Below, piece by piece: positions 15,505 through 16,787 of a stretch of 32,000 nt of DNA. The notes beneath the pieces were generated by a model. It ran no database searches, had not been told where the DNA came from, and saw nothing but the letters and a program-made list of their open reading frames with translations. The stretch comes from Elusimicrobia bacterium GWD2_63_28 (lineage in GTDB: Bacteria; Elusimicrobiota; Elusimicrobia; Elusimicrobiales; UBA9959). How positions within the stretch are numbered: the first letter of the stretch is position 1; each line of letters begins with the position of its first letter. The translations under genes were made by a program, and so were the position numbers. The DNA lies in NCBI GenBank assembly GCA_001799895.1, contig MGUI01000051.1:1-32000 (forward strand), read 5' to 3'.

Positions 15505-15798
15505 CTAGCAGCAGGTGCCGTCGTCGCCGCAGTCGCAGTCCGGTTCCGTGCCTTTCAGGAAGCCGGTGCGCACGGCCTGCGCGCAGCCCACGCCTTTCTT
15601 TACGGTTATGGCGTCCACCGGGCAATTGCCGGCGCAGGCGCCGCATTCCATGCACAGGTCGGCGTCCGTGATGGCCGCCTTCCGGTTCTCCACCTTGAAA
15701 ACGGCGTGGGGGCAGACGACAGCGCACATGCCGCAGCCTATGCATTTGTCCACGTCCAGCTTCAGCGTGGAGACCCCGCGCAGGTATTCCAGCTTCAT
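15505..15798 (-). CDS. hgcB: HgcB, mercury-methylation 2x[4Fe-4S] ferredoxin
   Basis: 97 aa. Two CX2CX2CX3CP motifs (CIGCGMCAVVCP and CMECGACAGNCP), a lone Cys72 (GVGCAQ) and the C-terminus CDCGDDGTCC with a terminal vicinal CC. The start overlaps the hgcA stop (ATGA). Confidence 0.85.
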   Translation of the reverse strand: MKLEYLRGVSTLKLDVDKCIGCGMCAVVCPHAVFKVENRKAAITDADLCMECGACAGNCPVDAITVKKGVGCAQAVRTGFLKGTEPDCDCGDDGTCC

Positions 15799-16787
15799 AA
15801 GAACCTCCCAACCGCCAGAATTATGAGCCCGGCCGCGGCGGCCAGGGCATGCGCCGGCATGGCCAGGCGCATCTCCTTCATTACGCCCGAGAGGGAGGTG
15901 TAGGTGGAGGCGCCGGTGAAATCCAGGCCGACGAATGAGGCGGCCGCGCCGTAGATCAGCGCCCTGGCCGCGAACTGCGCCGGGCTTTGGTCATGGGCCA
16001 GGGCCAGCAGGGCTGTGACCAGCAGGCCGGCTGCCGCGCTTTTTACGGCGAAGCTCCGTCCCGGCAGCCAGGGCAGCAGAGCGGGCACCAGCGCCCCTCC
16101 GGCGAACAGGGCCCCGAGGGTATAAGCCGCGTCCGCCCTGTAGCCGAGCAGGTAGAGCAGCGCGGCGGCCGGCAGCAGGTAGCGGCCGAAATGCACCAGC
16201 TGCACCGGCGCCAGTATCATCCTGTCGCTGAAATTGAAATTAACCCGGCGCATCTCCGGCGTGGCGCGGCCCAGGCGAAGATATTCGGGCAGGTCTTCAG
16301 CCCTGACCGGGCCGTAGGCTACGGAGAAACCTGTATAGGCCTTAACCCTGTGGGCGCTGACGCCGGGCGCGCCCAGCTGCGGCAGTATCACGGTCCTGTG
16401 GCTTACCACTTTCTCCAGGCCGGTTTCGGCTATGACACGCGCCAGCTCCCGCGTGCCGAAAGTGCCTTTGCCGGCGGCGCACCAGACATTGATCCCCTTG
16501 GTGTCCAGGACGAGGAGCCAGGCGGTCAGGCCCTTCAGGTTGGTGCGCAAGGCGTCGAAACTCAACTTGTAGTTGGCGGTGGCGAAGACGGGGGCGTTTG
16601 CGGCGGGGGACCCCAGGGCGTAAAGGCCGGGCTTTACTCGGTAGGCCATGCGGTTTATTCCCCAGCGGGCCTTCCAGGCCGCCAGTCTGTCGGCCCGGGT
16701 GTAGTCGGAGGAAATGGTTTCAATAGCCGCCGGCCGAGCGGCGCTCAGCCGCGGCGACAGCGTTACCTTCTGCGTATTTTTGTTCAT
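15795..16787 (-). CDS. hgcA: HgcA, mercury-methylation corrinoid protein (corrinoid-binding domain + C-terminal TM domain)
   Basis: Taking ATG 16787 gives 330 aa. 'LDTKGINVWCAAGKGTFGTRE' carries the N(V/I)WCA(A/G)GK cap-helix signature (16467-16490). The C-terminal half has about 5 hydrophobic helices. The further 92 codons in the track ORF cross the divergent promoter and are unlikely to be coding. Confidence 0.85.
   Translation of the reverse strand: MNKNTQKVTLSPRLSAARPAAIETISSDYTRADRLAAWKARWGINRMAYRVKPGLYALGSPAANAPVFATANYKLSFDALRTNLKGLTAWLLVLDTKGINVWCAAGKGTFGTRELARVIAETGLEKVVSHRTVILPQLGAPGVSAHRVKAYTGFSVAYGPVRAEDLPEYLRLGRATPEMRRVNFNFSDRMILAPVQLVHFGRYLLPAAALLYLLGYRADAAYTLGALFAGGALVPALLPWLPGRSFAVKSAAAGLLVTALLALAHDQSPAQFAARALIYGAAASFVGLDFTGASTYTSLSGVMKEMRLAMPAHALAAAAGLIILAVGRFL

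Follow-up and report, generated by a model that had tools for sequence, protein, structure and literature searches.

To our knowledge, no genetic marker for the formation of methylmercury by microbes is known other than the gene pair hgcAB. In the system of Pseudodesulfovibrio mercurii ND132 (also listed as Desulfovibrio desulfuricans), a member of the Desulfobacterota, the corrinoid of HgcA is in a Cys-on state, the methyl group passes from methyl-Co(III) to Hg(II), and low-potential electrons from HgcB regenerate Co(I) (Cooper et al., 2020, PMC7305189). Here, a minus-strand gene pair is described at 15502-16787 of contig MGUI01000051.1 of Elusimicrobia bacterium GWD2_63_28, which very probably represents functional orthologues of hgcA and hgcB; the whole stretch of DNA analysed, positions 1 to 32,000 of this contig, is referred to as the window. 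The host is an uncultured Elusimicrobia metagenome-assembled genome (MAG) of Rifle-type groundwater, and the pair is chromosomal.

The occurrence of hgcAB in Elusimicrobia was reported earlier (McDaniel et al., 2020, PMC7438021; Gionfriddo et al., 2020, PMC7573106). A pair flanked by acr3, arsC and arsR is presented in Fig. 6 of the former, and hgc+ MAGs from Rifle groundwater were reported to have ArsR and ars genes (Gionfriddo et al., 2022, bioRxiv 10.1101/2022.10.17.512643). Both the gene pair in Elusimicrobia and the co-localisation of hgcAB with ars genes are already known. The additions made here are a candidate operator palindrome, the complete organoarsenical operon that borders the pair on its other side, and the recognition of misleading public names. 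The hgcA/arsR palindrome and the arsP-trx-DGC-arsF-arsG operon were not found in the available text of McDaniel et al. (2020) and Gionfriddo et al. (2022), figures and supplements aside, and the MAG name GWD2_63_28 gave no match in a full-text literature search.

The hgcA gene, encoding the corrinoid protein of mercury methylation, occupies 15795-16787 of the minus strand; its frame, read from the sequence, runs from ATG at 16787 to TGA at 15795-15797 and comprises 330 amino acids (aa) plus stop. The start codon is supported by an alignment of six related Elusimicrobia loci, in which the ATG keeps its column and the non-coding DNA upstream of it diverges. The cap-helix motif NVWCAAGK (residues 100-107, 16467-16490), whose residues are conserved in homologues, contains Cys103, encoded by TGC at 16479-16481 and the sole Cys of the whole protein. 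Start, motif and Cys codon were all present where a first-pass annotation, made by a model from the DNA letters, had placed them; the motif coordinates that it quoted hold for the eight-residue core and not for the full 14-residue string GINVWCAAGKGTFG (16455-16496), a trivial discrepancy. The hgcB gene (15502-15798, minus strand) encodes, in 97 codons and a stop, the dicluster ferredoxin that takes part in mercury methylation, and overlaps hgcA by the four nucleotides ATGA at 15795-15798, read as cttATGAag, as had been claimed in favour of translational coupling to a 97-aa ferredoxin. A Shine-Dalgarno sequence, GGGAGG, lies inside hgcA at 15804-15809, 5 nucleotides (nt) upstream of the hgcB ATG. 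In 78 of the 80 related loci, hgcB directly follows hgcA.

The identity of the two proteins was assessed with the curated equivalog models of NCBIfam and their cut-offs, which were available for HgcA, HgcB, CFeSP (corrinoid iron-sulfur protein) and the fused HgcAB-like proteins. HgcA scored 412.5 bits against HgcA_corrinoid (NF040863, cut-off 275; E 1e-123), its residues 22-329 covering model positions 1-324 of 325, and HgcB scored 125.3 bits against HgcB_ferredoxin (NF040864, cut-off 99; E 6e-37), its residues 5-97 covering positions 2-93 of 93. Both matches are far beyond chance, and the proposed hgcA-hgcB identity was borne out by this hidden Markov model (HMM) check. The high-stringency criterion for HgcA is the pattern N(V/I)WC(A/S)(A/G/S)GK, for which six cap-helix motifs were listed, and NVWCAAGK is among the motifs found in verified methylators (Capo et al., 2022, PMC10087281); the HgcA described here conforms to this pattern. 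In the alignment, V101, W102, C103, A105, G106, K107 and G108 were invariant across 119 HgcA homologues. An HgcA of Desulfitobacterium, named as such at NCBI, was full-length colinear with residues 14-330 at 48% identity (E 2e-112). Desulfitobacterium species are reportedly experimentally verified mercury methylators, from work attributed to Gilmour and co-workers in 2013.

It was also considered that the pair could be a non-methylating HgcAB-like paralogue, comparable to the fused HgcAB of Pyrococcus furiosus, carriers of which are non-methylating in culture. Such a paralogue would account for the partial matches of HgcA (199.6 bits) and HgcB (55.6 bits) to the fused HgcAB-like model NF043039, but both scores are below its cut-off of 285, whereas the cut-offs of true HgcA and HgcB were exceeded. 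In addition, the present genes are two separate, translationally coupled ones, the NVWCAAGK motif is known from verified methylators (PMC10087281), and the full length of HgcA is colinear with both the Desulfitobacterium protein and the ND132 model. This alternative, which is excluded by the two-gene structure together with the HMM cut-offs, is considered very improbable.

HgcA shares a corrinoid-binding Rossmann-like domain with the large subunit of CFeSP (AcsC/CdhE; structures 2h9a, 2ycl and 4djd), a protein that serves acetyl-CoA synthesis and that has an N-terminal [4Fe-4S] domain, a triosephosphate isomerase (TIM) barrel, a cap Thr and no membrane domain; the first two of these are lacking in the present HgcA. 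The larger gene could accordingly be read as acetyl-CoA synthase gamma, the CFeSP large subunit AcsC of the Wood-Ljungdahl pathway, accompanied by an ordinary ferredoxin. This is the sense of the GenBank name of the identical protein, the sole Pfam match of HgcA is the CdhD domain, and the best sequence matches among solved structures are CFeSP entries. Against this, the CFeSP model NF003195 was matched only by HgcA residues 49-171, which correspond to the last ~120 CFeSP residues (model positions 322-444 of 450), at 74.6 bits with a cut-off of 306. The N-terminal 4Fe-4S and TIM-barrel parts are replaced by five membrane helices at the other end, a Cys stands at the cap position in place of the CFeSP Thr, and no acs or cdh genes are present in the window. 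The CFeSP identity is refuted by domain architecture and HMM cut-offs, and we assign it next to no probability. With both curated cut-offs missed, neither of the two groups that the first-pass annotation had named as fatal to its own assignment, CFeSP and the fused paralogues, takes in the present HgcA.

In a phmmer search against solved structures, only CFeSP large subunits were matched, by HgcA residues 49-170, and no solved HgcAB structure was found by sequence. Its alignment, counted by hand, set HgcA Cys103 on chain residue Thr374 of CFeSP 2h9a, which, reportedly from work by Parks and co-workers in 2013 and by Svetlitchnaia and co-workers in 2006, is the cap-helix residue beneath the cobalt; on this count the Cys stands at the cap position, as had been claimed. 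The number Thr374 does not occur in Cooper et al. (2020, PMC7305189). An AlphaFold model of HgcA, cofactor-free and built on the alignment of 119 sequences, had a mean predicted local distance difference test score (pLDDT) of 86.3 and a predicted template modelling score (pTM) of 0.79. Its transmembrane domain (residues 193-329, 15801-16211, minus strand) consists of five helices at residues 193-213, 217-240, 246-262, 269-293 and 299-329, with which hydropathy agrees; block pLDDT values there are 88-97, except for 67 at residues 291-300. The approximate count of five C-terminal helices given earlier was therefore correct, and five transmembrane helices were likewise described for HgcA by Cooper et al. 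(2020, PMC7305189). The best Foldseek match of the model in the PDB was 9a0b_A (E 5.9e-19, 42% identity over 326 aligned columns), which is the computational ND132 HgcA model of Cooper et al. (2020) and not an experimental structure. The comparison with ND132 HgcA, which the first-pass annotation had called for, rests on these Foldseek alignment statistics and on the NCBIfam equivalog models. The next Foldseek matches were CFeSP structures, on which the N-terminal, corrinoid-binding domain of HgcA superposes with a root-mean-square deviation of 1.9 A over ~126 residues and 26-27% identity. As modelled, the fold of HgcA is a CFeSP-like corrinoid domain followed by five membrane helices.

HgcB contains two CX2CX2CX3CP cluster motifs, with Cys19/22/25/29 and Cys49/52/55/59, each set followed by Pro. 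The other Cys residues are 72, 88, 90, 96 and 97. These positions confirmed the hallmarks previously noted for the protein, namely the two cluster motifs, Cys72 and a terminal CC. For HgcB, the criterion of Capo et al. (2022, PMC10087281) is C(M/I)ECGA in a gene that shares its contig with hgcA, and the present protein reads CMECGA at residues 49-54, encoded by a gene that overlaps hgcA by 4 nt. Cys72, ~12 residues past the second cluster motif, sits in a GVGC context kept in nearly all of 120 homologues; together with the tail EPDCDCGDDGTCC (Cys88, 90, 96 and 97), it belongs to the C-terminal extension encoded at 15508-15585 of the minus strand. An extra CxC in this tail had been singled out as a peculiarity of the locus. 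The proposal was rejected: CxC, in the context (G/T)EPxCxC, occurs in 119 of the 120 HgcB homologues and is, judged from this alignment, an ordinary feature. The variable part is the terminal CC, since ...CxCGGSC closes the sequence in 47 of the 120 homologues, and up to four additional C-terminal Cys were described for HgcB (Cooper et al., 2020, PMC7305189).

As in the present locus, ND132 has two genes, an NVWCAAGK corrinoid domain and a five-helix membrane domain; the strictly conserved cap Cys is Cys93 in ND132 HgcA and Cys103 here, and the HgcB Cys after the second motif is Cys73 in ND132 and Cys72 here, both ferredoxins having two [4Fe-4S] motifs and C-terminal Cys. The differences are that the HgcA N-terminus is ~10 residues longer here than in ND132, that the HgcB tail has four Cys here (CxC...CC) whereas only Cys94 and Cys95 are named in the ND132 tail by Cooper et al. 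(2020), and that the host belongs to Elusimicrobia instead of Desulfobacterota. Moreover, ND132 hgcAB has no adjoining ars structural genes, according to the preprint (bioRxiv 10.1101/2022.10.17.512643), while here ars operons are present on both sides. The Elusimicrobia MAGs HGW-Elusimicrobia-3, GWB2_63_16, GWC2_61_19 and GWD2_63_28 are of the same lineage, almost certainly even one population genome, and show nothing materially different.

By analogy with ND132, HgcA would be a membrane-anchored corrinoid protein in which the cap-helix Cys103 would ligate the cobalt ("Cys-on") and so favour the passage of the methyl group from cobalt to Hg(II). HgcB, as a ferredoxin with two [4Fe-4S] clusters, would re-reduce the corrinoid to Co(I), and its Cys72 and flexible Cys-rich tail could deliver Hg(II) and carry CH3Hg+ away. 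Translation of HgcA and HgcB would be coupled by the ATGA overlap and by the Shine-Dalgarno sequence within hgcA. Both this cofactor chemistry and mercury methylation by the host are drawn from the analogy. The earlier statement that the host is a predicted mercury methylator agrees with a pair that passes the curated models and the published high-stringency motif criteria; methylation in situ by the host is put forward with somewhat less confidence than the orthology of the genes.

Upstream of hgcA, and divergent from it, lies an arsR gene (16861-17247, plus strand) for an ArsR/SmtB metalloregulator (NF033788, 77 bits, cut-off 55). The protein has the winged-helix HTH_5 fold, and its ELCVCEL, which fits the ELCVC(D/E) thiolate site of helix alpha-3, aligns with the metal site ELCVCDI of CadC (1u2w). 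The 73-base-pair (bp) hgcA/arsR intergenic region harbours an AT-rich palindrome, CATATATGC-N8-GCATATATG, of 26 bp with perfect 9-nt inverted arms (16838-16863). By eye, it stands out as AT-rich in a G+C-rich window; it is unique in the window, where 0.06 matches are expected by chance, and no second copy, for example upstream of the other arsR, is present there. Four Elusimicrobia loci have the identical palindrome and two others a near-identical one, although the flank toward hgcA diverges. It includes, on the plus strand, TATAAT at 16848-16853, with TTGCTC 17 nt upstream, a pair that fell just under the -35 threshold of the promoter scan. The arsR ATG (16861) begins 7 nt past TATAAT, so that the palindrome ends on this ATG, and because of this short distance the arsR transcript is suggested to be leaderless. 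From the sequence, we infer that the palindrome is a candidate ArsR operator overlapping a bidirectional promoter. Because this conserved palindrome stands in the shared region next to an ELCVC-type ArsR, we also infer that ArsR would repress hgcAB and that arsenite would induce it. In ND132, hgcAB was reported to be controlled by an arsenic-responsive ArsR-like regulator (Gionfriddo et al., 2022, bioRxiv 10.1101/2022.10.17.512643). For the proposed regulatory link between arsenic and mercury, the present locus is an unusually clean natural case: an ELCVC ArsR occurs together with a conserved palindrome and with hgcAB in divergent orientation, and the hgcA/arsR intergenic region offers a defined DNA target for that link.

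Several points weigh against a functional, ArsR-controlled hgcAB in a methylating host. Mercury methylation by this organism is a prediction, as Elusimicrobia have no known cultured, assayed member, and the Elusimicrobia methylators were reported by McDaniel et al. (2020, PMC7438021) to be without the catalytic subunit of carbon monoxide dehydrogenase (CODH), which bears on the methyl donor of HgcA. A scan of 15300-17400 gave no hgcA promoter that reached consensus thresholds. The ND132 regulator is a four-Cys ArsR2, encoded upstream of hgcAB and co-transcribed with it, whereas here an ELCVC-type ArsR is encoded divergently from hgcAB. Finally, in the cofactor-free AlphaFold model, HgcA residues 103-108 have pLDDT <50 and no helix is formed between residues 95 and 111, presumably because no cofactor was present; the support for the cap helix comes from alignment and not from the model.

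The hgcAB genes lie between two arsenic-resistance operons. On the side of hgcA, arsR is followed on the plus strand by a HesB/IscA-like gene (17279-17587; Fe-S_biosyn in Pfam), an arsC-like reductase gene of the low-molecular-weight protein tyrosine phosphatase type (17596-18015; called by Pfam, 129.8 bits, under the cut-off of 174.3) and acr3 for arsenite efflux (18015-19073; TIGR00832, 451.6 bits, cut-off 282.8). The HesB/IscA-like protein, whose gene sits between arsR and arsC, carries a C-terminal CGDGCSCGH and is not a usual part of ars operons. On the other side, an organoarsenical-type ars operon (11955-15499, plus strand; Pfam and NCBIfam) converges on hgcB. It consists of another arsR (11955-12323, start uncertain), an arsP permease gene (12325-13626), a thioredoxin_3 gene for an ArsE-like protein of 80 aa (13636-13878) and a DGC-domain gene (13880-14245), all four called by Pfam, followed by genes of the arsF family (14226-14810; NCBIfam ArsF, 91.2 bits, cut-off 60) and of the arsG permease family (14807-15499; NCBIfam ArsG, 220.5 bits, cut-off 200). 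This arsR-arsP-trx-DGC-arsF-arsG operon resembles the "Operon C" reported from P. mercurii ND132. These left-flank genes were likewise called on two public contigs (L081 and L082) with the same gene neighbourhood. The arsG stop ends at 15499 and the hgcB stop is at 15502-15504, leaving 2 bp between the convergent genes, and no terminator was detected between them in the scan of 15300-17400. Read-through or interference between the arsG and hgcB transcription units is possible.

The conservation of this arrangement was examined among related loci. The eight closest (L001-L008) are all Elusimicrobia, with HgcA identities of 65-91%, the nearest genomes, at 84-91%, including HGW-Elusimicrobia-3 (91%) and GWB2_63_16 (89%) and the others ranging over 65-85%. 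The divergent hgcA/arsR layout is kept in all eight, with arsF/arsG lying downstream; arsR-hesB-arsC-acr3 is divergent from hgcAB in six, and the hesB-like gene is absent in two. Acr3 or arsC occurs within 6 kb of hgcAB in 32 of 80 related loci, or 23 of 71 when only loci from outside Elusimicrobia are counted. In some MAGs labelled Firmicutes, Elusimicrobiales and Cyanobacteriota (L013, L037, L043 and L048), arsR-arsC-acr3 or arsP stands immediately 5' of hgcA on the same strand, which has the look of a single operon and is unlike the divergent arrangement here.

These neighbourhoods bear on an existing hypothesis, which overlaps with the explanation preferred here: that the genes are true hgcAB orthologues whose physiological role is the handling of arsenic or organoarsenicals. 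It is consistent with the 2-bp distance to arsG, the 73 bp to arsR and the palindrome shared with the arsR operon, with a layout kept across such diverged Elusimicrobia, and with the recurrence of ars genes beside hgcAB in many phyla. In the ND132 study of Gionfriddo et al. (2022, bioRxiv 10.1101/2022.10.17.512643), hgcAB was arsenic-induced and loss of hgcAB lowered the tolerance to As(V), but left the sensitivity to As(III) as it was. About half of the related loci, furthermore, have no ars-type gene, regulators included, within 6 kb, and the co-localisation may mean no more than that regulation is shared or that the genes sit in an island of metal resistance. We also know of no arsenic-directed HgcAB activity that has ever been shown, which counts against such a role. 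On balance, a role in arsenic handling is considered unlikely. Slightly less probable again is the combined proposal that hgcAB is a member of an arsenic island, is transcribed from a bidirectional ArsR promoter at 16838-16863, is induced, along with arsC and acr3, by arsenite, and was selected for detoxification of arsenic or organoarsenicals instead of mercury, so that methylmercury in arsenic-bearing aquifers would be an arsenic-induced by-product.

The reading as an hgcAB pair for mercury methylation, which is preferred here, is not apparent from public records. An exact-sequence look-up found identical proteins in Elusimicrobia GWD2_63_28 and in a TPA MAG. The public HgcA HCC48724.1 is named "acetyl-CoA synthase subunit gamma", a 317-aa version of HgcA in Elusimicrobia bacterium GWD2_63_28 is named "hypothetical protein", and the public HgcB OGR71331.1, from MAG GWD2_63_28, is named "ferredoxin". 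The public annotation of the pair is uninformative because Pfam gives only CdhD for HgcA and only generic Fer4 domains for HgcB, and, because such names are misleading, name-based surveys miss these proteins. With hgcAB called correctly, this Elusimicrobia population from groundwater is marked as a putative methylator, as it already is in published work and in reference sets of hgc+ genomes.

Other genes of the window were noted in passing. Directly downstream of acr3, at ~19100-20041, is a gene for a PhnD-like phosphonate/phosphate substrate-binding protein of an ATP-binding cassette (ABC) system, which is also present on contigs L081 and L082 and may be linked to arsenate/phosphate discrimination; the start listed for this open reading frame (ORF), 18659, overlaps acr3 and is probably too early. 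A FadL/TodX outer-membrane transporter gene (20113-21357) adjoins a minus-strand gene (21525-22394) for a 289-aa bacterial WD40 beta-propeller protein (WD40 repeats, 221 bits). Further along, long ORFs with no Pfam match are found on both strands (22508-23518, plus; 22541-24616, minus), and genes for TldD/PmbA-type metallopeptidases are located at 23564-25060 and about 25000-26346. Toward the other end of the window, an efflux cluster (1751-8314) comprises a TetR regulator, an outer-membrane factor (OEP), a HlyD-type adaptor, two ABC ATPases and two ABC-2 permeases, and upstream of it lies a gene for a clostripain-family peptidase (340-1590).

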